From the NCBI GenBank assembly GCA_963714015.1, contig OY970223.1, positions 2,848,001 to 2,912,000 on the forward strand: a stretch of DNA of 64,000 nucleotides. The letters are read 5' to 3'. The DNA comes from Vulcanimicrobiota bacterium (lineage in GTDB: Bacteria > Vulcanimicrobiota > Vulcanimicrobiia > Vulcanimicrobiales > Vulcanimicrobiaceae). Made by a program: the position numbers and the translations under genes. The notes under the pieces are model-generated. The model was not told where the DNA came from, ran no database searches, and worked only from the letters and a program-made list of their open reading frames with translations. Below, piece after piece: positions 2,554-48,206 of this stretch (the first letter of the stretch is position 1; the number at the start of each line of letters is the position of its first letter).

Positions 2554-2562
2554 CGCTACATC
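2554..2562 (+). repeat. Left 9-bp direct repeat CGCTACATC (target duplication or att core)
   Basis: Identical to 48198-48206; marks the housekeeping/accessory boundary. Confidence 0.8.
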
Positions 2563-2583
2563 GGCTCTATTCGGCTATTAGGC

Positions 2584-2634
2584 GCGAATTCGGAAAATCC
2601 AATTCTCATCATTGCGAATTCGGGAAATCCGATT
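2584..2634 (+). repeat. Left-end motif pair GCGAATTCGG(A/G)AAATCC(A/G)ATT, 30-bp spacing
   Basis: 2584-2604 GCGAATTCGGAAAATCCAATT and 2614-2634 GCGAATTCGGGAAATCCGATT. Confidence 0.85.
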
Positions 2635-2646
2635 TGGCATTCCATG

Positions 2647-4185
2647 TCATCTTCCGGATGTAAGCCGTAATCGTCGATTCCGCTCCGCGACGACCCGTCC
2701 GTGGGGCCAAAGCCGCTCTCGGCCTCTAAACAGTTCCTTAGCTTTCAGCTCGGGGAAGCCTCGAACAATCGCGGCCAGAAGATCGTCGAGCGGCTTGTAG
2801 TGCGGGAACGCCGGATCGAGCAAATACTTTATGTACTGCCCCTCCACCCGCGCCTTGACGATCCCGGCCTCTTCGAACTTTAGCACCTTGTTCCACATGG
2901 CGTTGTAATCATGCTGCGGACGCGACCGCTTGAGGTCAACCATTGCGATGCCCTCCTCGCCAGCAAGGTGCAGCATCAGCAAGACCCACAGCCGAGGTTT
3001 CGTACCAAAGACGATCTCAGGTGCGTACGGGCCCGGAGTCGCACGCCCCGGCTGCGTCCGCACTCTTGATGGTTCCAGGCCTTGCAGGCTCAGCAGACAT
3101 CGGCGCAGTTCGCGATAGACCGGGTAGGCCGGGTTAAGGCCCACGCGTCGCGCTCTGCCCTTGCCGGTATCTGAGACGATTCCGGTTTTCGCCAGCCGCC
3201 CTACGACGTCGAAGCCGCCGGTACGTTTCGCGACGGTTTGCAACTTGAGGGGCGTCATTGGACCGTATTTGGCGAGCGCCATGAGAACGCGTTCGGCGCG
3301 ATGCTTGCCGAACAAGGCCCAGTCCTTGGCGTCGTCCAGAGATCTACGCCGTGCGACCTCGCACTCCATAACGCGCGGTTTGAAATCGGGATGGAAGGCT
3401 ACGAATGCGCGTAGGAGCTTTCGAAGCGGCGGACGCCATGGTGCGTCGGGAAAACGAACCTGCCCGCCGACCTTTATCAGGATGCCGTTCTTGACGCAGT
3501 TTATCACCTCGCCGGCGACCGAACTCTGCACCTCGTCCGGTACGATGCGCTGTAGTCTGCCAACCTCGATTCTGCCGCCGAAGATTTCCAAGACGGCGAA
3601 TATTTTGGTCCGAATGCGGGAGCCGAGAATGATCGAGGTGTCGCAATCATGTCGCGCGGTCAGCAGACCGATCTCCGCCGGCGTCATGTCGTTTGCCGTG
3701 CGCACATCGTATTGCTTGGCTAAGGAGGTCAGTACGGCGCGCACCTCCCGCATTAAAGGAAACGCAGGGTTAAGCGCGACGGCGTCTCCACGGCGAACGC
3801 CTCGGTATGGCAACGTCCATTTCGTGGTCAACCCGGCACGATCTCTCCGCACGATGCTCGCCGTGCGACGTTCGCTGAACCACCCGTCAAGAACCGAACG
3901 CCGCCTCGGGCCGGTGCTGAGGCCGACCAGAATGTCGGTATCCATACCGAAGATTGGCGGTATTCCACCCAAGGATCGTAGCCTATCACGTCGCGCTTTG
4001 TACGCAGCGTATTTCTTGCCGACAGCGGTATCGGTCGATCCGCGGCTTCTGAATTCGAGTGGATAAACCGCACGTTGCTTCCTCATCTGCCCTATCGACA
4101 AACGCGAAAACCAGATGGTGAGTTGCGCTGCAATCTTTTGTTCACGGTTTAGACGTACCACGGCTGTTAGGAGCCTGACTATCAA
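2647..4185 (-). CDS. Protein with four tandem winged-helix-like DNA-binding repeats (start uncertain)
   Basis: Four units: IFG...LNPAFPLMREVRAVL, ILGSRIR...PWRPPLRKLL, LFGKHRAERVL...LNPAYPVYRELRRCLL, VFGTKPRLWVL...LDPAFPHYKPLDDLL; very basic. Confidence 0.75.
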   Translation of the reverse strand: MIVRLLTAVVRLNREQKIAAQLTIWFSRLSIGQMRKQRAVYPLEFRSRGSTDTAVGKKYAAYKARRDRLRSLGGIPPIFGMDTDILVGLSTGPRRRSVLDGWFSERRTASIVRRDRAGLTTKWTLPYRGVRRGDAVALNPAFPLMREVRAVLTSLAKQYDVRTANDMTPAEIGLLTARHDCDTSIILGSRIRTKIFAVLEIFGGRIEVGRLQRIVPDEVQSSVAGEVINCVKNGILIKVGGQVRFPDAPWRPPLRKLLRAFVAFHPDFKPRVMECEVARRRSLDDAKDWALFGKHRAERVLMALAKYGPMTPLKLQTVAKRTGGFDVVGRLAKTGIVSDTGKGRARRVGLNPAYPVYRELRRCLLSLQGLEPSRVRTQPGRATPGPYAPEIVFGTKPRLWVLLMLHLAGEEGIAMVDLKRSRPQHDYNAMWNKVLKFEEAGIVKARVEGQYIKYLLDPAFPHYKPLDDLLAAIVRGFPELKAKELFRGRERLWPHGRVVAERNRRLRLTSGR

Positions 4186-4869
4186 TCACCTACAAGCGGG
4201 CAAAGTTGACGGATCTATCCGTTTTTGTTCAAGCGCTTGCAGCTGGGGCAATTGTATGTTGCCAAGGCGGTGAGAAACGTAGTGTGGCATCGGCAACGGA
4301 CCCAAAACCTCGCCGAGCTGCGGCAATACGAGGTAAAGCCTTCCATCGCGAAGATCGGCGAGATCCGGCGAACTCCATAGCGACGGGTCGTCCGAGACGA
4401 CGATGTGCATGACCCGGCTGCTCGGAAAATGTAGGCTTAGTACGAGCCGGCCAGCGGCAGATGGGGCGTGCAACCGGATCGTGTAAGCACCTCTCCATCC
4501 GACGAACTCGGCGGTCGAGTCGGTTTCCGCCTTCAAGAAACCGGATCCAAAGACGCCAATCTTCGCTCGTTCGGTCTGGTCGCGTTCCCACATCAACTTT
4601 CGTAGTGACGCGGCATAAGATGTATTAAGGAACGGCGATCCCAACACGGTCGATCCTAACCCGAGCGCCATTTTCGCCATGAAACGTTGCTCGAATCCGA
4701 TGTTGATGACGACACCCATCTCGTGATTGTCGCCCATGGCGATGATCCTATCGCCCTCCTCCTTGGTTTCATCGAGCGCAACGGCTCTTTCGCCGTGTTC
4801 GAAATTCCTATAGCAGATGCGGCCGAGCAGACCTCGCTGGCGCAGCGCCTCGTGCAAGTTGGCCTGATG
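4186..4869 (-). pseudogene. C-terminal half of an interrupted HNH endonuclease
   Basis: Joins in frame to 5903-6482 across the GCCTGATG repeat (FVHPMHQA|NLHEALRQ). Confidence 0.7.
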
Positions 4870-5910
4870 GTAGTTATGACGGCAAAAGATGCTCTATCTG
4901 AAAATAACAAGTGTGCGCCCAGGTCGAAAAGGTAAGCGTTAAACGGAGCCGCAGATCCTTACACAGGCTGAGCTTATACCGCAGATTGTTACGATTATCG
5001 TGACAAATATGACGCTCGCGACAAGGCCCCACCAGTAAGATCGAAGGACACCCTCCCAGGTTCGAACCGATCGTAGTAACCACCACGCTTCGCAAGCTAT
5101 TGTCATATACAGTATCGCAACGTATGTGGGTAGCGTATGGTTTGCAGATGAAGCTGCAAATCTATAACCAACCGCACTTACGAAGAGCAAGCCGATACAC
5201 AATGTTTCCGCCGCGACGATAGCTGGATGCAGGCCACGCGCATATTCCATTGTTCCACCGGACCTCCACTCAAGAGCGCTCGTACAGAAAACGGTAAACA
5301 AAACAAGACAAATAAGCGAAATGTCTCCAGGCGAAAGCGATACATCTGGGCCTCTGCAAAATAACGACCTTTGCCGTGAGAACGGACGCGAGCAAATCGC
5401 GCGCGTTTTATCGGCAAGGATACCGCCGTTCGTTGCATACAATATGACCGTTTGGTCGCCTTGAACATAGCGCAGCGATCCATCAGTGTCAGTTACCTTT
5501 ACGATCGATGGGGGCTCGACCGTGTAGCGCAATCCCATTGGCCGCACCTGGTCCAGTAACTGCCCGATTGATACTGATTCCATCGATGAAACGTCGCGTG
5601 TACTTGTCGCCTGGACCTCCATGACCAACGCCAAATGAACTCTGGGCGAAAAAAACCAAAGAGGGGCTCTTAGCGCGGTAACTACCAAGACCACGGAAAG
5701 CAGTGCCGAAGCGGAAACTGTCCAAGCAACCGCACGTACCTGCTGCTGATTCATCAACGCGCTAGTGCCTGAAACAATGTGTTTCGTTTTGATGCGCTCC
5801 ACAAAAAGGCGCGCCTTCCTCCAAATGGTCGCAGTGCGTGCACTGCACTTTCAATGTAATCAAACCCTCTCTTATTCTACGTTCCAAGCAGATTCGCAGG
5901 CTGCCTGATG
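4862..5910. mobile_element. 1041-bp single-gene insertion flanked by the 8-bp direct repeat GCCTGATG
   Basis: Repeats at 4862-4869 and 5903-5910; more AT-rich than the flanks; encodes no recombinase. Confidence 0.7.
4939..5802 (-). CDS. Multi-pass membrane protein of unknown function
   Basis: One N-terminal and about four C-terminal hydrophobic segments around a soluble loop. Confidence 0.65.
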   Translation of the reverse strand: MERIKTKHIVSGTSALMNQQQVRAVAWTVSASALLSVVLVVTALRAPLWFFSPRVHLALVMEVQATSTRDVSSMESVSIGQLLDQVRPMGLRYTVEPPSIVKVTDTDGSLRYVQGDQTVILYATNGGILADKTRAICSRPFSRQRSLFCRGPDVSLSPGDISLICLVLFTVFCTSALEWRSGGTMEYARGLHPAIVAAETLCIGLLFVSAVGYRFAASSANHTLPTYVAILYMTIACEAWWLLRSVRTWEGVLRSYWWGLVASVIFVTIIVTICGISSACVRICGSV

Positions 5911-6482
5911 CATAGGATGTACGAATTCTGGAACTCCGGGTCCAATTTGGATTTCCGCTTCAGGCGAATAGCGACGCGCCTTCGGGAAATAGGCCATCAA
6001 GGAACGCAACGCCATGTGGACCCAATCGGCTTGCGCTGTAGTAAAGCGAATATAAACGCGTCCCGGATCGGATTTTCGCGCGATTGGGTTTCCGCCAGCA
6101 TACGATGCCCACCTCGACTCGTCGGCCTTATGGATGTGATAGTAGCATATCCCGCACGGACCGAGCCACATCTCACAGACCTCGTCTTCCGCAACTGGTG
6201 CGCCGTCAATGGGGCCCATGTAGGATAGCGGACTGATCGACGTTTGCGTTCGCGGATCGAGATATTCTTGCGACGCCGCAGCTCGTCGTTCGTGAGGAAC
6301 CAATTCTTTATGAACGGACCGTCGATGAAAAGCCCGGACGTGCTATTGCATGCGATGCAGACGTCGTTCGTCTTGAAAATCGCGTCGGGAAGAAGCGCGC
6401 CGCCGAGCGCGTCGGGAAAAATGTGCTCCAACGAAAACTCGGAGTCGTCCTTTTCTTTATTGCAGTATATGCAGGTTTTCAT
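5903..6482 (-). pseudogene. N-terminal half of the HNH endonuclease (frameshift ~6280)
   Basis: MKTCIYC...SLEHIFPDALGG...VCIACNS HNH zinc motifs. Confidence 0.8.
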
Positions 6483-6591
6483 CGCCTTCCGCTTACCAAA
6501 CATTTTCGTCGAAGCCCTCGTATTCGGAATATAGGGCCCGGTGCGCCAGCGGGCAAGTTTGTCGAACGAGTCGGGACATAGCGGGATATAT

Positions 6592-7854
6592 TCAGATTCT
6601 CGTTTCGGCTGGTCGAAGGCGCGCGTCTCTGGTCGATATCTTTAGCGCCCCAAACACGTTGCGGCCGGCCTGCAGTTCGCCCTCCGATGGAGTCGATGCG
6701 AGCTCGTTCAGTCCGACTTCGTAACTCTCGCCTTCACGATCGACAATCAGAAGACAACGGTTGCGTCCGTAGTGCGCCATCGCCGCGCGCGTGAGTCCGT
6801 CGAACGTCGAGAGTAGGTCGTTGCGCGTGAAGTTCGCCGTTGCGCCGAAAGAACCGAGTACCACGACCAAGTCGGGCTGCGAGTCTACCATTGCTGCGGC
6901 CAATGTGAAGCCCGCCCCGCCCTTGCCCATTCTTTCCTGTACTGCTCCATCGAATGCGCGGCCGAGCTCGGCGCGTTCTCCGAGCGTCAATCCGGCGAGA
7001 ACGTCCTGCATCGCGAGATATCCGCGCCGCTCCCGAACTGGTTCGTATCCATCGATGACGGCCTGCGAGAGCCCGCTTTGAAATTCCGGATGCCGCCCAG
7101 CGAGCTGGTCCGCAACGTGTTCGAGAAGCATCGAGTACCGATCCCGCCGCGTCTTTTCATTGAAGACTGCCGCGACTTCGGCGGATCGCTCGTTCAGAAT
7201 CCGGTCCGCTTCGTCGAACGAAGTGATTTTGGAAAGATCACCGTCGAATAGGAGATAGTCGCCGAAGATCGTTAGTTCCGCGCCGAGCGACAATAGGAGC
7301 GATTTCGGCAAAGATCTCCGCGCGTCCAGGTAACGGGCAACTTCCGGCACCGTGCGCAACTGTTGACAGACGTGCATGAAGTCGCTGACGGAAAAGTAGG
7401 AAATGGGGACGCCCCCGTGTTCGAGTGGCAGGTGGTGGTCATGCAGGTCGATTCGCTCGAACACCTCAACCGTCGCTATGGCGTGGCTGATGCCGGGCAG
7501 GCCATCCGAAAACGAGACGCGCCCGCGGCGGCGGTGATCGCACCAAATTTCGGTATGGCCGCCGACTTTGCGCAGCGCACCCCTCAACTGGGCAACCGCT
7601 GCTTCGGCGTGCTTTTGAGCCCAACGCTGCAATTTCGATCCCGTCCGGCTGCCGGGATCATCCTGGCACTTCTGCGACACGAGCAGCGCCTGCTCTTTGC
7701 GTACGACCAAGAAGTCCGCGACCTCGCGCTGTAGGCCCCGGTCGAGAGTCTGAAGATTCCGAAAGACAAATTCAGCGACGAAAGCCGGCGCTATGAAACG
7801 CTCTACGTGGGATTCGGCCCATTGAGTCCGGGAGGAACCGATAGAACCTGCCAT
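6592..7854 (-). CDS. NERD/PD-(D/E)xK-like nuclease-fold protein
   Basis: REVADFLVV...LLVSQKCQ motif followed by AVAQLRGA; 420 aa. Confidence 0.6.
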   Translation of the reverse strand: MAGSIGSSRTQWAESHVERFIAPAFVAEFVFRNLQTLDRGLQREVADFLVVRKEQALLVSQKCQDDPGSRTGSKLQRWAQKHAEAAVAQLRGALRKVGGHTEIWCDHRRRGRVSFSDGLPGISHAIATVEVFERIDLHDHHLPLEHGGVPISYFSVSDFMHVCQQLRTVPEVARYLDARRSLPKSLLLSLGAELTIFGDYLLFDGDLSKITSFDEADRILNERSAEVAAVFNEKTRRDRYSMLLEHVADQLAGRHPEFQSGLSQAVIDGYEPVRERRGYLAMQDVLAGLTLGERAELGRAFDGAVQERMGKGGAGFTLAAAMVDSQPDLVVVLGSFGATANFTRNDLLSTFDGLTRAAMAHYGRNRCLLIVDREGESYEVGLNELASTPSEGELQAGRNVFGALKISTRDARLRPAETRI

Positions 7855-8703
7855 CTACCACTGAAACAACGGGCACACGCGTCTGGTTGCTGGAGTGCTG
7901 CGCGCCCAGTACAAGTGCTGTGCGCCGTGAAAAAGCGCTGCCCGTAGACGGCCGATGTCGTCCGGTGAATACCGCGTTTCGAAGGTTTTACCTGATTTTC
8001 CGGAGTTCGGGTGAGAAAGCGCCACGACAGTGCGTATCTTCCCGCCAAGGTCCATCTCGATCGGGTGCGGGGGCACTCCGCAACGAAAAATCTGCTTTTG
8101 GGCGACGTCGCCGACTGCGATCACGACCTGCGCGGCCGCCACGGAAAGCACGTTGTTGAGATGAAGTTCGACGCACGTTCCCGCCGCTTCCAACACGCCG
8201 TATTGCTTTCGGGATTTGCAATGCACGATCTCGGTAAGGGCGTAGTCGACGCCGGGCCGCGGCTCCGCCATGAGGTCCCTCGCTCTATTCAGAACCCAAC
8301 ACCAGTATTTTTGCGGCTCGATGAGATTGCCGTTGCGGTCCGTCGTGTAGCGTCCGTCCGCAACATACGCGCGGCTGCCGCCGCCGAAGGCGAGATGATG
8401 CGATTCCCATACCTGTTCGTCGGAGGCGTCGCCTCGAGCGTGATCGTCTTCTCCAATTGAAGGATTTGAAGAGATGAACAGCATCGGCGCGACGTCGATT
8501 TGGCCGACCCACGGCTCGGGCACCTGAAAGTCCCCATACCGTTCGGCTCCGAATTCAATCATCTGGTACCGCACTATGCGCTCGCACGCGTTGGTTCCAC
8601 CATCATAGATCTCGCGCACCTTCGGGCAGCGCGCTATACCTTGAAAAACCCTGCGAGCAAGACCATCCGACATGAACTCTTGTTTCGCCCCGCCGTACGC
8701 CAT
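7855..8703 (-). CDS. Uracil-DNA glycosylase superfamily protein
   Basis: PEPWVG...FISSNPS, TEIVHCKS, VIAVG and LSHPNS motifs. Confidence 0.8.
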   Translation of the reverse strand: MAYGGAKQEFMSDGLARRVFQGIARCPKVREIYDGGTNACERIVRYQMIEFGAERYGDFQVPEPWVGQIDVAPMLFISSNPSIGEDDHARGDASDEQVWESHHLAFGGGSRAYVADGRYTTDRNGNLIEPQKYWCWVLNRARDLMAEPRPGVDYALTEIVHCKSRKQYGVLEAAGTCVELHLNNVLSVAAAQVVIAVGDVAQKQIFRCGVPPHPIEMDLGGKIRTVVALSHPNSGKSGKTFETRYSPDDIGRLRAALFHGAQHLYWARSTPATRRVCPLFQW

Positions 8704-8823
8704 CGCTCTTGAAAGATGACGTGGGCTTGGCGATTCCTTGCGTGAACCGCAGAACGGGGCTTTACAACGGACTTCCGGCAGTTCGCTCGAGCACGTGATC
8801 CAGTCGTTCGACGCCGGCTATGA

Positions 8824-9774
8824 TTGCACGAACCGCGGGTTCGGATGCAGACTGTAAGCATGGAGAATACCGAAAACCCGTCTCGGCCGGGTGAAGTAGG
8901 GCAGAAGCCGAGACTCTCGCCTCCGACCAATTGGGGAAGCACGGGCGTCGAAGTACCGGACGTAACGGGTGCTTATGCGCTACCGGCCGGTACGAATGGA
9001 GACGAGGGCCGCCGCCAATTGCTGGCGTGTACCTTGGCTGCGCTGTATTCCGTCGTCGGAAGCGCGCAACGTGCCAATCAGCAGATCGACGAAACCCGCA
9101 ACGCCGTGCACCAACTGCTGATCGCAAGTGGTGCCCTGGCGGCCAGTGAGGCAGACGCGTTCTTGACCCTTATTTCGGCCGGTCTTGAATCTTCAGCCCT
9201 CGTGCATTTGCGAGGCCTTGGCGAGACGTCGCGCAGAATAGCGATTTGCCGAGAGTATCCGCCGTTGGCGTTGAAACTATATCAGACCGCTGGTCCAGCG
9301 TGGATTCGGATGGCCGCTCGAGTTGGAATTGATGGCATTCCGGAACTTGATCGCGCTGAGCGTGACATGCGAACGCTGGAAAACACGCAAGAGTTCAAAA
9401 ATGCGAAGAGCGACGTCGTGCAACGCTTTAGCCTGATGAGCGAGGATGAGTGGACCGCCTGGAGCAAGCGGAGCCATGGCGATGTCCTGGCGCTTGTGCA
9501 AGTATCGCAAAATCTCCGTGCGCGTGGTTCCGATGTGCGAGCCGCCGTCAATACGGAGTTACCGCAAGGCGTAGCGGTAAACGGCTATTTGATGCGCGCC
9601 ATCGGCTTTGCGCTATTCGCCCTCGCACATCTTTGCGTGGAGTTTGACGTGGATACGCGCGGCCAATTGACGGTTGTGTCGGGTGCCTACGAGCGCATGC
9701 AGGAGCTTGACGCCGCTAGCGGTGCCTTGCGCGTGTCCCCGCGAGACAAAACGCGCAGAACGGGACGTAGATGA
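8824..9774 (+). CDS. Helical protein, DUF5677/HEPN-like
   Basis: ALVHLRGLGE and WSKRSHGD motifs resemble DUF5677; a second copy lies at ~33520-34359. Confidence 0.55.
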   Translation: MHEPRVRMQTVSMENTENPSRPGEVGQKPRLSPPTNWGSTGVEVPDVTGAYALPAGTNGDEGRRQLLACTLAALYSVVGSAQRANQQIDETRNAVHQLLIASGALAASEADAFLTLISAGLESSALVHLRGLGETSRRIAICREYPPLALKLYQTAGPAWIRMAARVGIDGIPELDRAERDMRTLENTQEFKNAKSDVVQRFSLMSEDEWTAWSKRSHGDVLALVQVSQNLRARGSDVRAAVNTELPQGVAVNGYLMRAIGFALFALAHLCVEFDVDTRGQLTVVSGAYERMQELDAASGALRVSPRDKTRRTGRR

Positions 9775-10370
9775 CCTTTCCAAGACGCATCGACGGTTAC
9801 TTGCGCGGAGCGATGGCAACCCCGACTGGTGCGCCAGAGCCTGTAAGTCTCTTGATTCTCGTTCATAGACGAATCGCTCGATGTCGGGAGCCGTGTCTAG
9901 ATTTCTGGGCAGAAGCGCGATATCGGGAAGATCCGAAATGTGCAACCGTTCAATCGCATCTTCAAACGTGCCCGCGTCGCCTACTTCCGCGCCTTCGCCA
10001 TCAAAGCCGCGTCGCCCCAAATCCCCGTACGTAGCCTCTGTGGTGCACACCGACGCGGCGCAGCACGCATTGCGCGCTTTGTAAAGATTGAGGCTCGCGA
10101 TGTTTAGAATTCGAGATTCACGGGCAAGTCGTACGCACCCATCCGTGCGCCCGCGCTGAGAAAAAGATTTCAAGAACCCTGACGGGTTTTTTTTATTTTT
10201 GCTCGACAATCTCGCAGAATCTTGGCATCGCTCTGCGCGTGGCGCGTCGCTGCTGCAAACCACTCAAGAACAGGCGTCTTTCCACCGAGAGTTCTGACAT
10301 TGTTGGTCAGTGTTGTTCAAGTCCACGCATTTCTTCGCGAACTCCCGAGAAACGCGATTTAATTTTCCGG

Positions 10371-10624: not shown

Positions 10625-10625
10625 A

Positions 10626-16949: not shown

Positions 16950-18203
16950 ATGGGAGTCGTGAATCGGGAAGCACCGGCGGTGGCGATATCGTACGTACAC
17001 GGCTACCGCGATCTGGAAATATTGCGCTTGAGCAATTGCCTGCGGCGAGACGGCGTTGATTGCGAAATCGACCAATACGAGCCTGCGCCGGAAACGGGTT
17101 GGGCGCGTTGGATGGCAGAGATGATGACGGAGCGCATCGTGCTCGTCGTGTGCTCGGAATTGTACAACCGGCGCTACCATCTTCGCGACTCGCCCGGAGT
17201 GGGACTCGGTGCGACGTTCGAGAGTGGTCTGCTCGTTCAGCGTGCTCTCGATGCGCAGGGGCGCAACAAGAGCATCATTCCGCTGCTTTTGGATTCGAAC
17301 GATGCTCGGTTCGTTCCGGATTTTCTCAAGGATGTGACGCGTTACGACTTAAGCCACGGCGGCGGCTACGAGGATCTGCTGCGTCGACTGACCAACCAGC
17401 CGGCCGTCCTGCGCCCTCCGTTGGGCACCGTTCCCCACCTTCCGCCAATCGTAGCCGATCCCGCTATGGCAACGCGCCGCAATCTCATTTTGTTTCAGTC
17501 CGAATCCTCCGGGTTTTTCGGCATGCCGCTCCTGGATGTCGAACGTGCCGAAAGCTTTCGCTTGACCGTCACGCCTGATGATTCGGCGGACGTCGCCAAA
17601 CTGCGCAGCCTCAAGAACGAACGCGGCCGCTTCCCGATCGCCTACGGATTGACGGCAGCCTTCGTTCGGCTGCGCAACCTCCGCGAGTTCATGCGAGACG
17701 CGCAAGAGCGCTTCGAACTGGACCTCGTCGAAGTTCCATTCAACAGCGGATTTGGTACCGAAATGTCTTACAACGGAATATCCGCAGACAAGATCGCGGA
17801 AATGCGTGCGCGCCGGATACTTCTGGACGAACCTTTGCCAAACGTTGGCGGCAGCGGATGGGGCGGCGATCTCAATCAGATGACTTTCGAGATGTTCGTA
17901 AGCGGAAGCTCCTCGAGCGGCGACCGCCTCGCCGTGAAATCGTCCCCTGTTCCGCCGCTTGTGCGGGCCATGTCCAACAGCAACGATACGGTCCCGGCAA
18001 CCAAATTGGTGTGCGTCATGCTGCTGATCCTGAGTGGTGCCGTCGAGCATATCTCGCGCCTTGAAATGTCGCTGGAAAGGGGCGATATGCGAATTGATTT
18101 TGAGGGAATTCGGCATAAGACGTACTCGAACGCCGAGCCGGCGCGTATCACGCTGTCGGGCGTTTGCCCGGTGAGTGGAACGGCGAACCAGTACACACAA
18201 TGA
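16950..18203 (+). CDS. SEFIR (TIR-like) domain protein
   Basis: ISYVH...LRRDGVDCEIDQYE...GWARWM...VLVVCSELY...GLGATFE. Confidence 0.85.
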   Translation: MGVVNREAPAVAISYVHGYRDLEILRLSNCLRRDGVDCEIDQYEPAPETGWARWMAEMMTERIVLVVCSELYNRRYHLRDSPGVGLGATFESGLLVQRALDAQGRNKSIIPLLLDSNDARFVPDFLKDVTRYDLSHGGGYEDLLRRLTNQPAVLRPPLGTVPHLPPIVADPAMATRRNLILFQSESSGFFGMPLLDVERAESFRLTVTPDDSADVAKLRSLKNERGRFPIAYGLTAAFVRLRNLREFMRDAQERFELDLVEVPFNSGFGTEMSYNGISADKIAEMRARRILLDEPLPNVGGSGWGGDLNQMTFEMFVSGSSSSGDRLAVKSSPVPPLVRAMSNSNDTVPATKLVCVMLLILSGAVEHISRLEMSLERGDMRIDFEGIRHKTYSNAEPARITLSGVCPVSGTANQYTQ

Positions 18204-18364: not shown

Positions 18365-18599
18365 GGGTATCCGTAATACATTGTTGGTCGGGCCGAGCGG
18401 CAGGCCCGGTAATACGACATGAATATCGCAACACATTGTTGACGGGTGCTCCAAGACATGATAGTTTAATATCGTAATCTATCGTTGGAGGAGCCGGTGT
18501 GACCGCAGCCGAGTTAACCGCTGTTGGGCGTAATTCCCAAATTGAAGATGCCGACTCCGACCCTTATTGGCACGAGGCCCGCCGCGACGGTGCTCATCC

Positions 18600-19952
18600 A
18601 TGAGCGGGAACATTCTCAACCTCCCGCAGTACCGCGTCGAGCACGTGGATGAAGGTGAACACGACTACCACGTTTACGCCGAGACGCTGCACCCTCGCGT
18701 CGTTTGCGAATGCGGCTCGCATGACGTGAGCCGGTGGGGGACGCACGAGCAGGTCGTCAGGGACTTACCGATGCACGGGAAGCGCGTCGGGATCTACCTA
18801 CGCACACGCCGCTTCCGTTGCAACGCTTGTGAGAAGACCGGTTTCGAGCGCCTTCCGGCTGTTTCTGAAAAGCGGGCAATGACGGAGCGTCTTGTTCGCT
18901 GGATCGGCGCGCAGAGCCTCAAGCGCACGTTTTCCTCCGTTGCCGAAGAGGTTGGCGTGACGGAAGGTACCGTCCGCAATATCTTCCGCGATCACGTTAC
19001 CGATCTGGAAACGCAGGTGCGGTTCGAAGTGCCGCGGTGGCTCGGGATAGACGAAATCCATATCATTCGCAGGCCGCGCTGCGTCGTCTCGAACATCGAG
19101 GCGAAGGCTATCGTCAATATCTTGCCCGACCGCAATAAGCGAACCGTTATGGCGTATCTGCACGCGATGAAGGGGCGAGGGCGGGTGAAGTATGTCGCGA
19201 TGGATATGTGGACGCCCTACCGCGATGCCGCCGCCGCCGTCTTGCCCGACGCGAAGGTCGTGATCGATAAGTTCCACGTCGTCCGAATGGCCAACGTGGC
19301 CATGGAGCAGGTGCGCAAGACCCTGCGGGCCCGGCTTTCGCCGAAAGAACGGCGGGGGCTCATGCACGATCGCTTCTTGCTGCTCAAGAGGGAGTACGAA
19401 TTGACTGCGCAGCAGCGGTTCCTTGTGAGTTCCTGGGCGACGCTGCATCCCGAACTAGGCGAAGCGCACCGGCTCAAAGAGCAGTTCTTTGCCATCTACG
19501 ACGCAGAGGACAGGCACGACGCCGTAGACCGCTACGGCAAGTGGGCAACGAGCATTCCGCCGTCCCTGAAGGCGGCCTTCTCCCCAATCACCACGGCTTG
19601 GCGCACATGGCACGACCCGATCCTCAACTATTTCGACCATCCGATCACCAACGCATACACGGAATCGCTGAACAATCTGATTCGCGTCATGAACCGGCTG
19701 GGGCGGGGCTATTCCTTCGAGGCGTTGCGGGCCAAGATTCTCTTCACCGAGGGGCTGCACAAGCACAGCAATAGGCGACCCAAATGGGAACGGCGCTCAT
19801 CACGGCGCGAGTCTGGCAAGACGTACATGTCGGCGATCATATCCTACGACGCGGCGGAGTTCAGCCGGCGCGCGTTTGAGGCAGAGGATGCCATCAACCT
19901 CGGCGTGGACATCGCAGCATTAACACGTCGAATCGAGGCCGGTCGTTTCTAA
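18600..19952 (+). CDS. ISL3 family transposase
   Basis: N-terminal zinc finger; LGIDE, VAMDMW, VIDKFHVV and TNAYTESLNNLIR motifs. Confidence 0.95.
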   Translation: MSGNILNLPQYRVEHVDEGEHDYHVYAETLHPRVVCECGSHDVSRWGTHEQVVRDLPMHGKRVGIYLRTRRFRCNACEKTGFERLPAVSEKRAMTERLVRWIGAQSLKRTFSSVAEEVGVTEGTVRNIFRDHVTDLETQVRFEVPRWLGIDEIHIIRRPRCVVSNIEAKAIVNILPDRNKRTVMAYLHAMKGRGRVKYVAMDMWTPYRDAAAAVLPDAKVVIDKFHVVRMANVAMEQVRKTLRARLSPKERRGLMHDRFLLLKREYELTAQQRFLVSSWATLHPELGEAHRLKEQFFAIYDAEDRHDAVDRYGKWATSIPPSLKAAFSPITTAWRTWHDPILNYFDHPITNAYTESLNNLIRVMNRLGRGYSFEALRAKILFTEGLHKHSNRRPKWERRSSRRESGKTYMSAIISYDAAEFSRRAFEAEDAINLGVDIAALTRRIEAGRF

Positions 19953-21943: not shown

Positions 21944-22166
21944 CGGTTCAAGACCATCTAGGATCTACTTCTGGAAACCTGGACCTGCACCTTTGCCTAG
22001 ATCGAACCACGGCGGCGAGGAGGGCCTTGTAGGCGCTTCTTGCCACACGGGATCAACACCGGACGAGGAAGACGACGTAAACTTCGGAACCGACATTTCA
22101 ACACTGACGCAGCGACGCGAAAATAATCGGTTCTAGTGCAGGATCAACGATAGAATCCGAATAGCC

Positions 22167-22940: not shown

Positions 22941-23349
22941 GCGGGCTTCCTCCGATGCGGCGGCGACGCGGCTGTTCCAGGGCGGCTTGTCGGAATCATT
23001 CTGGCCCAGCAAGCGAAATGCACGTCCTACCAGGTAATGGGTAGCGCTGTAGCCGCTACCCGGCGTCCTAGCATTGCCGCTGTCGCTCGCGCTACCGTTC
23101 CCGCGTTTAGATTGAATCACGGCGCGCCGATGATCCGACTTCGGGGGCGACGCTTTTCCCGAACCGCGTCGCAGCACATGGAGGGTAGGAGCGACGAATC
23201 CGTGCTGGACCGGATTTTCTGGAAGCCCGTGCGCGGCGACATCGTCGCCGCCTAGATCCCAGTCCGGTGTAGCCGAAGGTACGTTGCGGCAAGGTGCGCG
23301 ACAAGAAGTTCCGTCGGCGCGTAGCGTCCTTGTCGGGTAGCGTCGATTA

Positions 23350-28516: not shown

Positions 28517-29540
28517 ACTGAGAACGTAAGCACTACGGTGCCGTTGTCTTGTGCGGCGTAGTTTCCGGGCTTAAGCTTCACTGTCGCTCGTCCGTCTTCA
28601 ACCCTTGCTGATGCAACCCTTATTGCGGGGTTGCCACCCAAAATCTGTAGCAGCGTCCCATTAGGCACTCCAGTCTACACTTAGGGTTTTCGATTCCAAG
28701 TCACTTGCCGGGGCGAACAGCAGTTTGTCGTCAAAGCCGAAGTCAGGTTCCATCGAAACGATCCTACTCTTTCGGTCGTTGTCAGGAAGATAATCTTTCA
28801 TACGATTGATGAGATAGCGCTTGAGGCTGGTGCTCGTGACGTTGCCGTACTCATCCGCCGCCACATCCAAGCCTCTTAGCAATGCATATGTGAACACGCC
28901 GTGAACTAAACCATCCGGCATCTTCGCCTCGACGGACACGAGTCTTGAACCGCGCGGAATACGCTGAGAACACTCGGCAAGCCGAAGAATTGCCGTGCAC
29001 CCGACGGAAACTCGGCAATTGCGGAACGACCGTCATCTGGTAGTTCATGCAGCAGTCCATCCACAATACGAACTCATCGAAGTACGCGGCGTTATAGAAC
29101 CAATCCAACCAGGCAGTAGCGTACACGTGCTCAGTTTGGACGCTGGTGGCATTGGCCGCGAATATCGCGCCGTGGGCACGAGCAGGCGCAAATCCATGAC
29201 CGCTCATATACACGTAGAGCCGCCGGCCGACGGGCGGGTTCGCGTTGGCGTTTACCTGTGCCAATGATTCTAGGCGTGCGAACTCGCCAACAACGTTCGC
29301 GGTTGCGGGCACGGCCGTCGCAACCGAGTAATTCGGCGGCAAGGGGTCAGGCGAACAAACAAGCCTCGCTCGCGTGGGATCCAATCCGCCTTTTCGCGGA
29401 TGAATTAACCATTCGTGGATAGCAACTGCATCGTTGATGGGTCCCCGCAAATCCTGTGGCTCGGCAGGCGTCGAACCAAAGCCTGGATAATTCGCGATTC
29501 CCACTACGATTGCGTAGTCGGTCGGATTCAAGGCCGGCAT
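28513..29540 (-). CDS. Caspase-like peptidase C14 (frameshifts ~28945 and ~28670)
   Basis: YAIVVGIANY, LRGPINDA, MSGHG (His), WMDCC (Cys), GVFTYALLRGL. Confidence 0.9.
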
Positions 29541-38062: not shown

Positions 38063-38803
38063 TCATGTTGCAGCGCCTTCGTCGCCACAGACGCCTTCGT
38101 GTCCATCAATCTCCATAGTGGACTGTTCATCGCTGATGAATTTCTTGATAGCGAGGCGGCCAACCATCCGCATCATTAGGACGTCGGCCGTTCCGCCTAT
38201 CACCGCGCCGGCGAAGGGGGCGACCCTACCCAGATTCACGATTCCCCGAGTGCCGGCTTTCGTCACGATTCGCGAACCGCCGATGCGGTTGATGGTCGTC
38301 AAGAGCGCGCGCGGGATCTTCTTAACGCCTTTAACTGCGAGCGACTTCGCAACCCCGACGGCGGCACGCTTCCCGGGTCCGGCAAGGGAGTCGCCCGCGA
38401 CGAGCGCAAGAACGAACGCCTTCACGTCCGGACTCAGCGGATCTTCGCCCGCAAGCACCGCGATGGCCGCCACAGTCGTCGCCTGAAGCACCAGCGCGGC
38501 CGGAACCGATACTGCGATGCTTGCAAGGCCGCCGAGTCCGGTCAAGAAGCCGGCGCTGCCGGCGTAAGTGCATTGCGTTCTAAGCAGTCGGCGCGCACGC
38601 TCATCGAGCGTTCCAGGTTTTGCGCGGTGAAATTCGCCGATCTCGCGTGCACCCGGAAAGCCCGGGAAACCGTCCACAATCAACCCGTACAGGGCGTTTA
38701 CTGGTTCGCCTGCGCGTGAATTCAAGAATTGGAGCAGCAACGGAGCGTTGATCTGAGGATTGTTCGAACCGTCCCGGTATCGCTGCTTTTCTTCTTCCGC
38801 CAT
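38063..38803 (-). CDS. EcsC family protein
   Basis: GSAGFLTGLGG...TKAGTRGIVNLGRVAPFAGAVIGG. Confidence 0.8.
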   Translation of the reverse strand: MAEEEKQRYRDGSNNPQINAPLLLQFLNSRAGEPVNALYGLIVDGFPGFPGAREIGEFHRAKPGTLDERARRLLRTQCTYAGSAGFLTGLGGLASIAVSVPAALVLQATTVAAIAVLAGEDPLSPDVKAFVLALVAGDSLAGPGKRAAVGVAKSLAVKGVKKIPRALLTTINRIGGSRIVTKAGTRGIVNLGRVAPFAGAVIGGTADVLMMRMVGRLAIKKFISDEQSTMEIDGHEGVCGDEGAAT

Positions 38804-38990
38804 GCCGTCTCGGTTTGCCCGTCGGAGTACGATCCTACGCTGCCGGATCTGCCCGCCCGCCGTGCACCGATGGGGTTTCCGGCATGCGGTTACAAGCTCG
38901 TTTGTTTTTCCCGCGGGCTCAGCGCGGGAAAGATGCTCGAAGCGACGCTGCGGCAGAGCAGGCATGGCGCGTTGGAAAGGATGGGGTTGG

Positions 38991-39274
38991 ATGCTTAAGG
39001 TGGGACAGGTGGAGTACGGATTTCTAAAGTTGAAGATTTTTTGGTGAGGATTCGTCATCTCGACGGCGCGGATGTCAGATCCGACCGGACCGGCATGCCG
39101 ACCTGGCCGTACGAGCGCGCGGCGAAGGACGCCTGGAACGTGGCGGACTGGAAGCGCGAGCGCTTCAAGCCCACGTATCCGGGATTCGAGGTTGAAGTCC
39201 TGGACGGGGATGGCAATCCGGTCCAAGGCAACATGAAACTCGAGACCGTCCGTGACTCGTACGCGGAGGATTAG
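38991..39274 (+). CDS. Small hypothetical protein (frameshift ~39040)
   Basis: DVRSDRTGMP..PYERAAK...YPGFEVEVLDGDG...TVRDSY. Confidence 0.65.
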
Positions 39275-39302
39275 ATCTAGGATCCGCGTTCGAACGGCGT
39301 TG

Positions 39303-39766
39303 ATGTTGTTCGCCGCAGCGATTTGCGTGCCAGTCTGTGTTTCGGCGCAACAAGACGCCACTAGTTATTCGTCGCCAGAGCTGGCGTGTGGGGCCGAGCG
39401 TTTGCACGCGCAGACCGCGCCGTCGACGCGCATGATCTCTACGGCAAAAGCGGAGGCCGTAAAACGCATGCCGTTGCGGAGGTTGATTCGGCGGTGCATG
39501 CGCTACGCCTGGCCGTGGCTCAATGCCTCAATCCTCCCTCCATGGCCCACGTGACCTTCCGCAACTGATTCCTCATAACGTACAACACGGTGTACAAACA
39601 CTTCACGAACCACGCGGACGCGGGAACGACTGGATTCGTGCTGGCGGATCAGATGCTTGCGAAGTGCATCCAGGACTTGCTCGGCACGCCGGAAGGAGCG
39701 GCGTGCCAGATACGCTTGCGCGCCAACGCGCGGATCGCCAAGTTCGTCGATTCGGACGGTACCTGA
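39303..39766 (+). CDS. Secreted hypothetical protein (several frameshifts)
   Basis: Signal peptide; coding-like segments in successive frames. Confidence 0.4.
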
Positions 39767-43294: not shown

Positions 43295-43404
43295 GGCTCT
43301 CCGCCAAGCGGAGACGTGACGGAGAGCCGATGTGCGGTGCGCGTTCTTTTATCTTCAAAAGCCGTGATGGCTCTCCATCCTTCGACGACATGGGCGGAGA
43401 GCCG
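43295..43404 (+). repeat. Two hairpin units GGCTCTCC-N10-GACRTG-N1-2-CGGAGAGCCG with a 39-nt spacer; candidate ncRNA
   Basis: Units at 43295-43329 and 43369-43404, intergenic. Confidence 0.7.
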
Positions 43405-43437
43405 GATATCGAAATCTGTCACCGGTTAGCGCCAGAA

Positions 43438-44082: not shown

Positions 44083-44126
44083 TTTTCTCCTGCGGTTGAC
44101 GCAGTCCAAGACCGCGGAGAAAAACG

Positions 44127-45032
44127 TCATCGAAAGTCGGAGTACCGCCAGTCCTTTATGAAGCGCACCTCGTCGGAAAGCATTCTTTCGGGGTTTTCGA
44201 CAACATAGCTGCGCATCCACAAATCGGCTAGACACAAGAGCGACGTCTCGAGCACTTCGATTTGAGTGTCTTGACAGCCGGCGACCGCCATGGCGGCGAT
44301 CGCGAGTCGCCCGGGCACGTTGTCCGCAAGGAGTTTCAAGCGCGTCACCGTCAGTGTCGGCTCGACCCACCTCCTGAAAGCCTTTTCGAAAACCCTGCGA
44401 TGTCGGTGGAGGTACATCAGATCGATTTTCGCGGTTTCCCGTCTCAAGACGGACTGGATACCGTCGAGAAACGCGTCGCGCCGGCTTCTGGCGACCTCGT
44501 GGACCTCAAAGACGTAGCGCGCAAGCGACTGCGAACTGTCGAAGTCGCTGCCGCGATTCATGGCAAAGCCGATGGCGACGTTGTCGTTGTGGTCCAAAAC
44601 CGTGCTTCCACTAAGCGCGCTCGCCGCGCTTAATCCAAGCCAGAGATCGTAAACGTCGTCGCGCAACTGCTTGGACCGTGGTACGGCCAACGCGGTCGCC
44701 AGCGTGCCGACGACGTCGATATAATGACCGCAGGTCCAGAGCATCCATAGACCGCTGCACCAGGCGATTCCCGATGATTTCAAAGCTTCGCCCAGAGCCC
44801 AAGAGCGTCGCGCGTCCGGAGCATGCACGCCTCGTCTCCAATCGTCGAAACTTTTGCCTGCGGTAGTAGAGGATTTCGGATCCCATTTTTCGATGGCGCG
44901 CTCCAGCGCCCTTACTACGCGACCGCGATAGGGACGCACGTCAAGACGGTTTTTCCGACCTTCGGCCTTGACCAACATTTTCAGTATGCGCGAAAGGCGC
45001 TGTTCTACGGCATTCTTCAGAGTGCGCGGCAT
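44127..45032 (-). CDS. Hypothetical protein with a possible XRE-like DNA-binding region, divergent from the transposase
   Basis: KSFDDWRRGVHAPDARRSWALGEAL. Confidence 0.7.
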   Translation of the reverse strand: MPRTLKNAVEQRLSRILKMLVKAEGRKNRLDVRPYRGRVVRALERAIEKWDPKSSTTAGKSFDDWRRGVHAPDARRSWALGEALKSSGIAWCSGLWMLWTCGHYIDVVGTLATALAVPRSKQLRDDVYDLWLGLSAASALSGSTVLDHNDNVAIGFAMNRGSDFDSSQSLARYVFEVHEVARSRRDAFLDGIQSVLRRETAKIDLMYLHRHRRVFEKAFRRWVEPTLTVTRLKLLADNVPGRLAIAAMAVAGCQDTQIEVLETSLLCLADLWMRSYVVENPERMLSDEVRFIKDWRYSDFR

Positions 45033-45159
45033 GTCCAGATCATCGTTCCAGATCAGCCGGCACGACCTTTTTTAAAATCGCCGGGCTGCGTTCGGGCAAC
45101 GCAGGGAAGTACAATTGCGCCACGTTGGGCCGCTCGATACTGAGTGCCCCGCGAAAAAC

Positions 45160-45640
45160 CGGCTCCTTGAAAACCGAAAATTTGAAATGTCGGCCGCAGG
45201 CTGGCGCATGCACGATCTCGTTGTTTACGTCGAGGACGCGCATGTCGCTCCGTTATGCGGCGTCAATGAGCGGCGTCCGAGTCGGCATAGCCGGAATTTC
45301 AACGTCGCAGTCACTCGAGCCCGGAAGGCGGGCGAATCGCGAACGGTGAGGGCCTCACCGTTCGCGAGAACGATGAGGCCCCTACACAAGTCCCCGGTGG
45401 CATCTCCAGTTTTCGACGCTGAGAGCCGTCGGGCACCCGACCAGTATGCGCTTTCCGCTACCGCCCTCGCAAGGGGGCACGCGGGCGCGGTCGGACCCGA
45501 CCGGGGACGCACCGCAACAGGAGATTGTTGTGCGTAAAACTCCAGAAAACGGGCGCTTCTATCGAGCGCCAATTCGGCATGCGTCGATTTGGACGCGCGT
45601 TATGCGCGAGAACGGCTGCGTCCGCCCGGGAGGCAGGATC
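45160..45640 (+). ncRNA. Candidate structured non-coding RNA/leader upstream of the transposase
   Basis: At least eight hairpins, including a perfect 14-bp stem (45337-45367) and a GCAA tetraloop; no credible ORF. Confidence 0.5.
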
Positions 45641-45642
45641 CC

Positions 45643-47410
45643 ATGCTGAGCCCGGGGCACGGCACACCTGCGAAGCCTAGCGAGGTCTTCCCGTACAAGC
45701 CGCCGCGCTTCATCCGCGAGGATTCCAAGCGCGCCCGGCTAGAGGCGGACGCCCTGGCCGCCATGGCGGATGCGGGCATGGGCCGCAAAGATGTCCGCTA
45801 CGTGCACGCCCTGGAGGACGAGCCCGTCGATCAGGCCCAGCTCGATGACGAGGTCAAGGGATCGCCCGACGGTACGATTTTCTGGGTGCGGTCCAGCTCG
45901 TGCCGGCAGTGCAGCGGCAAGAAGCCGCGCCGCCGCCGGGACAAGAAAACCGGGAAGCTCATCGAGCCCAAGAGCAAGCCGCACGCTCCGGGCAAATGCC
46001 GCAAGCGGGAGCGAGAGCGCGTCACCCGCATGGGCGAAGACGTCTTCACGTGCTCGCACAAAGGCTGGAAGAACGCCCAGCAGTGCGTGCACATCCGCAA
46101 GGCCAAGAAGAAACTGGGCATCCTCTCCGGTCCGTACTCGACGGCGCGCCGCCGCAAGCCGACGATCTGGATCTTCTCCTCCGGCTTTAAGGAGGCGACG
46201 CGCCGAAGCAACGCCTACAAAGAGATGCCCAGACGCGTTCCGCAACTCGCCTACGAATTCTGCCGGCGCTTCGTCACGCCGCCGCGGAGTGCCGGGCGTA
46301 CCGGAATTCCGTTGGCCGCAGTGTGCTTCGCGCTGCTGATGAAGGTGTTCATAAACCGCGATTATGACGGCATGGTGCACACGCTCGCGCACGACGAGAC
46401 CGTCAGCAAGTTCTGGCGATTGCTCGCGCCAAATTTCGCGGACGAGTTGCCGGAAACAGGCACGTTTTCGAAGCGCTTCGGCAACGAAAATCTGACGCCG
46501 TACATGTACGACATCATCCCTGCGCAGGGCAAAATGGGCCGCAAGATCGATTACATGAACCTGATCGATTCGGACCAGCATCCCAAGATACCGACCATGA
46601 ATTCGTGCACGCTCAAGTTCGGCGGTCCGCCGCCGGCGTGGCGGAAGGTGGCGGAGATGGTGAAGCGCCACTTCGGGATCGGCAACGTGAGCAACCTGAT
46701 CGTCGCGCTGGACGTGACGCTCGACACCGGCATCGGCTCGAGCGACGGCTGCCATCTGCCCAGCATGGCGCGCCAAATGTTGGAAGCGCAGGGACGGCCG
46801 TTTCCCTCGGCCGCGGATCAGGCGTACTCGGGCAAACGCAACTTCCGCGAGTTGCAAAAGATGGGATTCGAAGCGCTCTACATTCCCGAGAAGGCGAACG
46901 AGCAGCGCCTGACGGCGCGCAACGAGTGGTGCGAACTGGCGAAGAAAATGGCGGCGTTCGAAAAGGACCGCGAGCACGAGTACAAGTCAAACCAACGCAA
47001 TCGCAGCAAGGCCGAGAACTACCCGTCAAGATCGAAGCACTACTATCCGATGGGACGGCTGCGCGCGCGAAAGGGCGATCCGAAGCCGGATTACCCGAAG
47101 GATCTGAAACTCACGGACGACGGGAAACTGGACGAGCAGTCTGTCTCTGCTCCCAGAGGACGTCATCGAACGCATCATCAAGGCCGCGGAAGTCGCAGTC
47201 GGCGTCGCCCCTTTGAACGAAACGCTCGCGGTCGCCATCGTTGACAACCTGCGCTCGCTGGTGATGCTGGAGCACCTCTTCGACGTGCGCGTGGACTTCG
47301 ACGATCCGGAGTGGGCGTTCGAGGGGATCACGACGGTTTTCGAAGAGGAGATCCGCATCCAGGTGTCAGGACCGAGGCCGCGGCCGTCGGACGGAATGGA
47401 CCCGGCGTAG
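45643..47410 (+). CDS. SWIM-like zinc finger + IS4/IS5-like DDE transposase (frameshift ~47150)
   Basis: FTCSH...QCVHI finger; LIDSD, AADQAYS and RSKAEN catalytic motifs; NETLAVAIVDNL C-terminal helix; GGGAGG RBS. Confidence 0.8.
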
Positions 47411-47958
47411 CCGGCGCTGGCGCGTCGCGCCGTGCCACTCGGCCGGACAGGTGCGCGTGCCAAAGCGTTCGCCGATCACGGCCTGCAACGGCACCATGAG
47501 ATCCATGGATGACGGACCGGAGTTCCGCGATGAACTCCGGCCCGCGCGTCCCCGCAGAAAGTCGGATTCATCGATCTCGATGAAGCACTCCCGCTCGTTC
47601 TCGCGGATTCGGCACCCCAATCGTTGCGCGGTCCGCGGCCCGTCACCGAATACCAGCGCGGGCGGTTTTCGGCGGGAAAGCGCAAACGCCGTGCGGTTCA
47701 CGAGACCTTCGCTCGTCAGCGGTTCCACTCGCCGTCGGTCTCTTCGAACCGGTCGCGTTCCGGAGCCATCCGGCCGTTGGGGTAGCCGCAAGCGATGCTG
47801 CCGAAGTAGAGGTATCCGTTGCGCCAAACCTTCGGAAGGTCGTCAAGCCGGTCCGCGACCGGCGTCTCGTCGTCGCCCGGCTTTTCCGAAAGCAGCGCTT
47901 CGAGCGCCGCGTCCAGGCCAGCAATGTGCTTCTCGGTGTTGCAGTCGATGATGTGCAT
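47366..47958 (-). CDS. Hypothetical protein (frameshift ~47720)
   Basis: GGGAG RBS and MHIIDCN start; continues in a second frame. Confidence 0.45.
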
Positions 47959-48022
47959 TTGCGTCTCCCGTGATCGACGGAATAGTAGCATCGATCTTCG
48001 TCTGATGAAAGTCGCGCCGAAG

Positions 48023-48056
48023 GAAAAGAGCCCGACCTCATCGCCGGACTCTTTTC
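48023..48056. terminator. Terminator-like hairpin inside the right end
   Basis: GAAAAGAGCCCG-N10-CGGACTCTTTTC. Confidence 0.7.
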
Positions 48057-48071
48057 GTGTTCCTCGCGCGC

Positions 48072-48184
48072 GCGAATGCTGGAAATCCGTTATTCGTTAT
48101 GCGAATTCTGGAAATGGGCGCGAATTCCGCAAATCCGATTTTGCGTAGGGGCCAATTCTGGAAACGCCTTGCAAAATTGGATTT
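48072..48184 (+). repeat. Right-end motif array: four direct copies plus one inverted half-site
   Basis: 48072 GCGAATGCTGGAAATCC, 48101 GCGAATTCTGGAAAT, 48120 GCGAATTCCGCAAATCCGATT, 48151 GCCAATTCTGGAAAC; inverted AAATCCAATTTTGC at 48171-48184. Confidence 0.85.
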
Positions 48185-48197
48185 ACGGTGTACGACA

Positions 48198-48206
48198 CGC
48201 TACATC
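48198..48206 (+). repeat. Right 9-bp direct repeat CGCTACATC overlapping the fliE stop
   Basis: Identical to 2554-2562. Confidence 0.8.

Follow-up and report, generated by a model that had tools for sequence, protein, structure and literature searches.

How an island of more than 45 kb came to lie exactly at the stop codon of fliE, with a DDE transposase gene at one end and no recognizable integrase, is the question raised by the DNA analyzed here, a stretch of 64,000 nucleotides from a Vulcanimicrobiota bacterium (assembly GCA_963714015.1, contig OY970223.1, positions 2,848,001 to 2,912,000 of the forward strand), which we call the window and whose positions are counted from its first letter. 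Comparison with related genomes indicates, with a probability that we put at roughly 0.8, that a family of DDE transposons with cargo is represented by one copy at 2563-48197. Its members pair an IS5-like transposase gene at the right end with a gene for a winged-helix protein (P0002 in the window) at the left. The family of large elements is apparently undescribed; in a full-text literature search, with subscription journals outside its coverage, we found no winged-helix partner described for an IS5-like or SWIM transposase, and no DDE transposons at tmRNA or at nrdJ or fliE stop codons.

The island is bounded by the 9-mer CGCTACATC, whose only two copies in the window, at 2554-2562 and 48198-48206, enclose 45,635 bp (2563-48197). 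An earlier reading of the window, made from the letters alone and referred to here as the sequence-only reading, had pointed out this repeat, the position of the fliE stop codon within its right copy, and a terminator that deletion of the interval would bring to about 25 bp from fliE; all three observations were reproduced. The two copies are read here as a 9-bp target-site duplication, which keeps the target gene fliE (48200-48550, minus strand; Pfam FliE, E 1.1e-23) intact: its stop codon, CTA on the plus strand at 48200-48202, forms positions 3-5 of the right copy. The left copy lies 24 nt from a hairpin with perfect 13-nt arms and a 2-nt loop (2502-2529, minus strand), which would be the fliE terminator of the uninterrupted site and is now separated from fliE by the element. 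Deleting 2563-48206 in silico yields the order fliE, terminator and a gene for a SBP_bac_5 lipoprotein (Pfam).

Inside the duplication, alignment and motif searches identified a left terminus (2563-2583, plus strand), GGCTCTATTCGG..., which is homologous to the left termini of the elements in two related genomes, G169 and G043. It is followed by two direct copies of a subterminal 17-mer, GCGAATTCNGGAAATCC (2584-2600 and 2614-2630, plus strand). Four more plus-strand copies, beginning at 48072, 48101, 48120 and 48151 (within 48072-48167), lie at the right end, ahead of an inverted copy of the repeat (48171-48188, minus strand) and the right terminus, ...CGGTGTACGACA, which ends at 48197 and departs from the family consensus in its degenerate last 12 nt. 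The 17-mer has seven matches in the window, one of them within the cargo at 5921, a number reached by none of 100 shuffles, and apart from scattered matches with two mismatches it clusters nowhere else in the genome. The left end, GGCTCTATTCGGC..., aligns from its first base with the left end of the G169 element, both 17-mers included, and the right end is in register with those of the elements in G169 and in a further genome, G118, from the inverted repeat copy outward. Agreement with the right-terminus consensus amounts to 11 of 11 positions in G169, 10 of 11 in G118 and 5 of 11 in the window. The sequence-only reading had stated that the ends are not inverted repeats, which is correct for the window, whose ends (GGCTCT... 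and ...TACGACA) match at 5 of 12 positions, and does not extend to the family, in which the match is 11/12 in G169 and 14/20 in another relative, G195; inverted repeats escaped that reading because the right terminus of the window has diverged from the consensus. Just inside the right-end repeats, a hairpin with T-runs on both strands (48023-48056; arms 48023-48034 and 48045-48056) is likely a two-way terminator that insulates both transposase and fliE read-through, and a hairpin at the same position is present in three relatives, L044, L045 and L033.

The case is decided by relatives from other genomes, among them G195 and G169, whose flanks are 92-93% identical and each of which lacks the element of the other. 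The G195 element (2863589-2897379, 33,791 bp) is flanked by the duplication TTTTAGCTA; at the corresponding empty site in G169 the flank matches overlap, and the junctions carry the 9-bp TTTTAGCTA. The G169 element (2006154-2047285, 41,132 bp) is flanked by GCGAGTTGG, and at its empty site in G195 the matches of the two flanks share precisely these 9 bp. Both elements have inverted termini: GGCGCTAGTGACATTATGCC at the left and, as reverse complement, CGCTATGGTGACGTTATGGC at the right in G195, and GGCTCTGTTCCG and TGCTCTGTTCCG, respectively, in G169. The smallest member, in L044, measures 6,154 bp, is flanked by GCCTAGCTG and has G195-type ends with an inverted match of 8/12; it contains only four genes. 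Its two cargo genes, at L044:6802-7254 and L044:11455-12702 (both minus strand), encode a WapI-like immunity protein and a DUF4238 protein. Closely related transposases thus lie in elements of 6.2-41 kb, each flanked by a 9-bp duplication of its target, and for two of these elements a sister genome has the empty site.

Family termini are inverted repeats of either the GGCTCTGTTCCG type or the GGCGCTGGTGAC type, and the layout of the ends is shared by the window and its relatives. At the left end the terminal repeat is accompanied by two more, all pointing inward; at the right end a hairpin is followed by two to four repeats in the direction of those at the left end and then by a single inverted terminal copy. 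The cargo between and outside the two core genes is unrelated from element to element, and no cargo gene is common to the window and the G169 element at E<1e-5. Terminus motif searches found no ends in G404, G360, G299, L042 or L032, and generic repeat-cluster scripts, which recovered the right ends of the window and L045 and missed known ends elsewhere, were abandoned. A candidate for the flank of the G118 left end, on contig C96, was rejected as a paralog.

Insertion in this family is specific for site and orientation, and the duplication leaves the target gene whole. At each of the seven mapped right ends, the transposase side of the element borders directly on a conserved, convergently oriented gene at its 3' end: the class II ribonucleotide reductase gene nrdJ (Pfam) in G195, L044, L045 and L033, the transfer-messenger RNA (tmRNA) gene (Rfam RF00023) in G169 and G118, and fliE in the window. 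In all five cases with a protein-coding target, the stop codon falls on positions 3-5 of the duplication, and the CCA end of the tmRNA occupies positions 7-9. The nrdJ insertions lie at the same nucleotide of the 3' end in different genomes, and their 9-mers, TTTTAGCTA, GCCTAGCTG, CGTCACGAG and TTCTATGAA, have no sequence in common, a pattern that fits a target duplication and not a shared attachment (att) core. Likewise, G169 and G118 carry insertions at the same tmRNA nucleotide, and G195, although closer to G169, is empty there, which favours independent insertion in G169 and G118. The targeted nrdJ of L044 (12854-20110, minus strand, 2418 amino acids) was seen to host inteins as well as the transposon at its stop codon, with Intein_splicing matches in four stretches together with the homing-endonuclease matches LAGLIDADG_3 and Hom_end.

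The transposase gene of the window spans 45589-47410 (plus strand). Its main frame runs from 45589 to 47244, and the C-terminal 65 codons lie in another frame (47213-47410); homologs are colinear across the break, and we therefore assign a single-base frameshift near 47140. The protein combines an N-terminal SWIM-like zinc finger with a conserved C-terminal extension. It has no Pfam match, and NCBIfam transpos_IS5_2 reaches 22.8 bits against a cut-off of 140; the same model is the best NCBIfam model of its relatives, of which none of the 19 scanned reaches the cut-off. DDE_Tnp_1 is detected in 35 and SWIM in 18 of 47 family members (E<=0.001), and in an alignment of 20 sequences D327, D410 and E476, along with R472, are invariant, with D-D-E spacings of 83 and 66 residues. 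The family is rare. A word-indexed search of 5.8 billion proteins returned two homologs of the transposase, and a full HMMER search of 1.84 billion representatives returned 479 at E<=0.001, 36 of them at E<=1e-30. Members were found in 7 of 348 genomes of the host family (E<=1e-50) and in 16 of 401 genomes of the phylum (E<=1e-20), and the homolog records belong to Eremiobacterota, Baltobacteraceae and one metagenome-assembled genome of Fimbriimonadales. Outside the window, the genome itself holds a weak transposase-like match (G000:C1:824706-825113, minus strand; 28% identity, E 3e-5) and, equally weak, a P0002-like match interrupted by a TAG (833032-833259, plus strand; E 6e-5). The two lie 8 kb apart in the outward-facing layout of the family and may belong to another element, either distant or degraded.

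The conserved partner of the transposase, P0002, is encoded at the opposite end of the element (2647-4185, minus strand; 512 amino acids). It has no match in Pfam, PADLOC or PHROG, the last two of which also gave none for the transposase, and its assignment comes from structure: an AlphaFold2 model built from 9 sequences (predicted local confidence, pLDDT, 79.2; predicted template modelling score, pTM, 0.53) contains four winged-helix repeats, and its best Foldseek matches are RPC62, itself a protein of four extended winged helices (E 8e-4 to 3e-3), with a match to ScpB as well. Single domains match MarR and ArsR proteins with template modelling scores of 0.4-0.66 (Foldseek), and the sequence alignment shows a four-fold repeat ending in LNPAFP. 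Throughout the family the partner is a protein of about 500 amino acids with four winged helices.

Where both genes lie on the same contig, the transposase gene and the P0002-like gene face outward in eight of eight cases. The distance between them is 41 kb in the window, 25 kb in G169 (identical to G041), 21 kb in G195, 4.5 kb in G118, 2.9 kb in G404, 2.7 kb in L042, 1.1 kb in L044 and 0.5 kb in the distant pair of G299; the count excludes G043 and G360, with the genes on different contigs, and L045, L033 and L043 are cut by contig ends. The two proteins also fall into matching clades. Together with the 9-bp duplications and the empty sites of the relatives, this pairing supports the proposal of the sequence-only reading that the window holds a large, targeted, DDE-mobilized island with a winged-helix gene at the left and the transposase at the right.

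No further recombination enzyme was detected, again in agreement with that reading, which had recognized neither a tyrosine or serine recombinase nor tns genes of Tn7. None of the 76 open reading frames (ORFs) of the window matches a recombinase or Tn7-type Pfam family, including the TnsA, TnsB (rve), TnsC (AAA+) and TniQ domains, and when all six frames of the 3.56-Mb genome were searched with PF00589 (six matches) and PF00239 (two matches), none of the matches fell inside the element. Among 50 proteins compared with PHROGs, four matched, all to endonuclease or unknown families, and no phage structural family was found, although divergent genes may lie among the ORFs without a family, which are the majority.

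We propose that the transposase would cut both ends and join them to a staggered target cut of 9 bp, and that the winged-helix protein would read the subterminal repeats or the target DNA. A role in target selection or in end selection, analogous to TnsD/TniQ, is favoured for it, with about even odds between the two. The asymmetric layout of the repeats would set the orientation of insertion, and each clade would be tuned to its own target, nrdJ, tmRNA or fliE. The window copy would have inserted behind fliE and then decayed, to persist as a now fixed defence island. In its full form, this proposal describes an independent, Tn7-like safe-harbour system, in which a winged-helix-directed IS5-type transposase places up to 46 kb exactly 2 nt past a stop codon, or 6 nt past the tmRNA CCA, and in which clades are retargeted through divergence of the winged-helix array. 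We advance this full form tentatively, with chances that we judge to be slightly short of even.

Several observations weigh against the transposon interpretation or limit its reach. Transposition of family members is so far apparent from the comparison of sequences, and the window copy, whose termini match at 5/12 and whose transposase is frameshifted, is probably immobile. The 9-mer repeat on its own is weak, with at least two copies occurring in 8 of 100 shuffles, and a script found further exact 9-mer pairs between the two flanking regions. Both fliE flanks were searched in 41 genomes and the fliE loci of eight relatives were examined: an empty fliE site was found in none of the eight, the DNA downstream of fliE differs in each, and fliE lies beside the hairpin terminator in none, an outcome that the sequence-only reading had named as a refutation. 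It is uninformative, because these loci are only 69-76% identical to the window and each has other DNA after fliE; no claim made here depends on unpublished genomes. In the sole public run with the host flank, a soil metagenome (share 0.09), no contig reaches the junction; its seven small contigs cover host flank at 393-2514 only, and none covers 2563-10000, so that this run counts neither for nor against the interpretation. The elements at nrdJ and those at tmRNA each form a group of related elements, so that only two independent protein-gene targets speak for the stop-codon register. The prediction that the G043 element, both of whose proteins belong to the nrdJ clade, would lie at nrdJ failed, since the 3' end of nrdJ in that genome is unoccupied; clades and targets therefore do not seem to correspond one to one. 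Among distant homologs of the transposase, 11 of 12 loci have no P0002-like gene within about 1.5 kb, and only close family members may be paired in this way. The model also leaves unexplained four direct repeats between the core genes of G118. These (TATAGGCAAACGCTCGAT-like) follow a terminator hairpin, and hairpin and repeats together occupy 8360-8470 of locus L074 (G118:C83), with the P0002-like gene on one side and another transposase-like fragment on the other; they may be an operator, or mark where an older, nested element ends. Finally, the frameshift in the window transposase could be an assembly error, as the closed genome is only 89.6% complete and a second gene, AbiTii, is also split.

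Among other explanations, the one that fares best, although we consider it unlikely, is an integrated plasmid-like replicon in which P0002 would be a winged-helix Rep initiator, the 17-mers iterons and the transposase no more than the integration enzyme, as in TnGBS. Direct 17-mers spaced by 19-31 bp, with an inverted copy, are reminiscent of iteron origins, Rep proteins that bind iterons fold as winged-helix pairs (the Foldseek matches of P0002 being only to generic winged-helix proteins), and the four direct repeats of G118 lie upstream of the P0002-like gene. The repeats are, however, split between the two termini and form part of the inverted termini in relatives, a layout of transposase or accessory sites; no type IV secretion, relaxase, partition or conjugation Pfam family was found among the 76 ORFs, most of which have no family at all, and the minimal member of 6.2 kb has only four genes.

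Still less probable is a patchwork island, assembled by several unrelated events and flanked by a chance 9-bp repeat, with a transposase derived from a small internal insertion sequence. The 9-mer statistics given above, the other 9-mer pairs of the flanks, an ISL3 element inside the island and a G+C content that varies from 0.53 to 0.64 along it would fit such a history. Against it, the repeat copies stand exactly at the borders of homology to the termini of the G169 element, six of the seven 17-mers of the window lie at its two ends, with no shuffle in 100 reaching seven, and relatives with the same two end genes have empty sites.

The least probable of the three is an integrase-type island, with the 9-bp repeat as att core, an integrase that was lost or is too divergent, and the transposase as an unrelated passenger. 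In its favour, gene 3' ends and tmRNA are classic targets of tyrosine integrases, the subterminal repeats are direct on both arms in the manner of arm-type sites, and the window termini are poor inverted repeats. Against it, neither PF00589 nor PF00239 matches inside the element, in six frames or among the 76 ORFs, the only genes conserved across elements are those for the transposase, the winged-helix protein and one further gene, the four nrdJ-site elements have wholly different 9-mers where a core would be shared with attP, and the termini of relatives are clearly inverted.

The further conserved gene (44127-45032, minus strand) is divergent from the transposase gene, and tblastn homologs occupy the same relative place in G169, L032 and L045; it has no Pfam, PADLOC or PHROG match, and its Atlas neighbours are all hypothetical proteins. 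Between it and the transposase gene lies a leader with a low-energy fold (45033-45588, plus strand). The sequence-only reading had described a structured RNA at the right end, for which we find only this fold: 45033-45600 folds better than shuffles (z -5.1 on the plus and -3.3 on the minus strand), scanning the window for Rfam families and tRNAs yielded nothing, and the leader has no detectable relative, hence no detectable conservation. Within it, at 45370-45400, about 31 nt (GCGAACGGTGAGGGCCTCACCGTTCGC-like) form a perfect palindrome. A different leader, of about 145 nt and with a predicted multi-stem structure, precedes the transposase in G169, L042, G195 and G118 (L040:12250-12395, L042:3976-4120, L049:347-489 and L074:5330-5476, all minus strand). 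It is 78-85% identical between elements, the transposases of which are 37-64% identical, shows compensatory changes in 6 of 39 predicted pairs (four sequences), and is followed by an ORF of about 88 amino acids with a canonical CxCx(n)CxH SWIM finger, which was not found in the window. A model of this leader (R1), trained on the four relatives and run against 17 sources, recovered nothing beyond its training sequences, and in the window it had no match at E<=1. Downstream of the window transposase, a small ORF of 80 amino acids with a GGGAGA ribosome-binding site (47716-47958, minus strand) has no family match.

The cargo of the window (4186-44126) consists mostly of ORFs without a family and looks defence-like. 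Recognizable genes encode HNH (5997-6503), bSEFIR/TIR (16950-18203), caspase-like (28851-29540) and PDC-S29/EcsC (38063-39361) proteins, and astacin-like and C70-like peptidases are also present. A complete-looking ISL3 transposase gene (DDE_Tnp_ISL3, HTH and zinc ribbon; E 1e-62) is located at 18567-19952 (plus strand). AbiTii (22133-23618, minus strand) is split into two overlapping ORFs that match the N- and C-terminal halves of the profile, either as a pseudogene or through an indel error. Because the transposase is frameshifted, the right terminus has diverged and an ISL3 element has inserted into the cargo, the window copy appears to be decaying, and it is probably immobile.

Of the systems to which the transposon family may be compared, Tn7 is closest in behaviour. 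Tn7 is directed by TnsD/TniQ to insert downstream of glmS, tRNA and other conserved genes, and shares with the present family a large cargo-carrying DDE element, asymmetric ends with several subterminal repeats, insertion in one orientation immediately behind a conserved gene, the 3' end of which remains undamaged, a gene for a DNA-binding protein beside the transposase (its role being proposed here) and a cargo rich in defence genes. It differs in its machinery, since the present family has no TnsA, TnsB, TnsC or TniQ and uses an IS5-like transposase (DDE_Tnp_1) that bears a SWIM-like finger. The duplication comprises 9 bp here and 5 bp in Tn7, the inner right-end repeats here share the direction of the left-end ones, and insertion occurs 2 nt past the stop codon, compared with some 25 bp downstream in Tn7.

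With IS5 elements the family shares transpos_IS5_2 as best profile, the ordered D-D-E residues, terminal inverted repeats and the 9-bp duplication, which the IS903 group of IS5 also yields. Its proteins, in contrast, are about 200 amino acids longer, with the SWIM-like N-terminus and the conserved C-terminal extension, and score far below the cut-offs; its elements of 6-46 kb carry cargo and a partner gene and insert site-specifically, whereas IS5 elements are small (about 1-1.5 kb) and encode a transposase only. TnGBS of streptococci, in which a DDE transposase replaces the integrase and insertion occurs at promoter-upstream sites, is likewise a large island with a DDE transposase gene at one end and an insertion targeted relative to a gene signal; here, no conjugation or replication modules were detected, the transposase belongs to another family and the targets are gene 3' ends. 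Tyrosine-integrase islands at tmRNA and tRNA genes resemble the family in targeting the ssrA 3' end and in regenerating the gene end by a flanking repeat, and differ in that here there is no integrase and the repeats are target duplications of fixed 9-bp length and variable sequence.

To our knowledge, the host-sparing, site-specific cargo transposons of bacteria described so far belong essentially to the Tn7 superfamily and use three to five dedicated proteins. The family described here appears to need a single IS5-like transposase and one winged-helix protein to reach safe harbours by a second route, in one orientation, with single-nucleotide precision and with 6-46 kb of cargo. Islands at tmRNA and at the 3' ends of genes are usually attributed to integrases; the family implies that such islands can be DDE transposons, and this bears on how island finders classify islands without an integrase. 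If the proposal holds, it would provide a compact, two-protein system for the protein-guided, site-specific integration of large DNA, and the stop codon, found at the same position of the duplication in two unrelated target genes, would present an oddity of constant register that needs a mechanistic explanation. For the Eremiobacterota-type soil bacteria in which the elements occur, the family would represent a vehicle for the traffic of defence genes.

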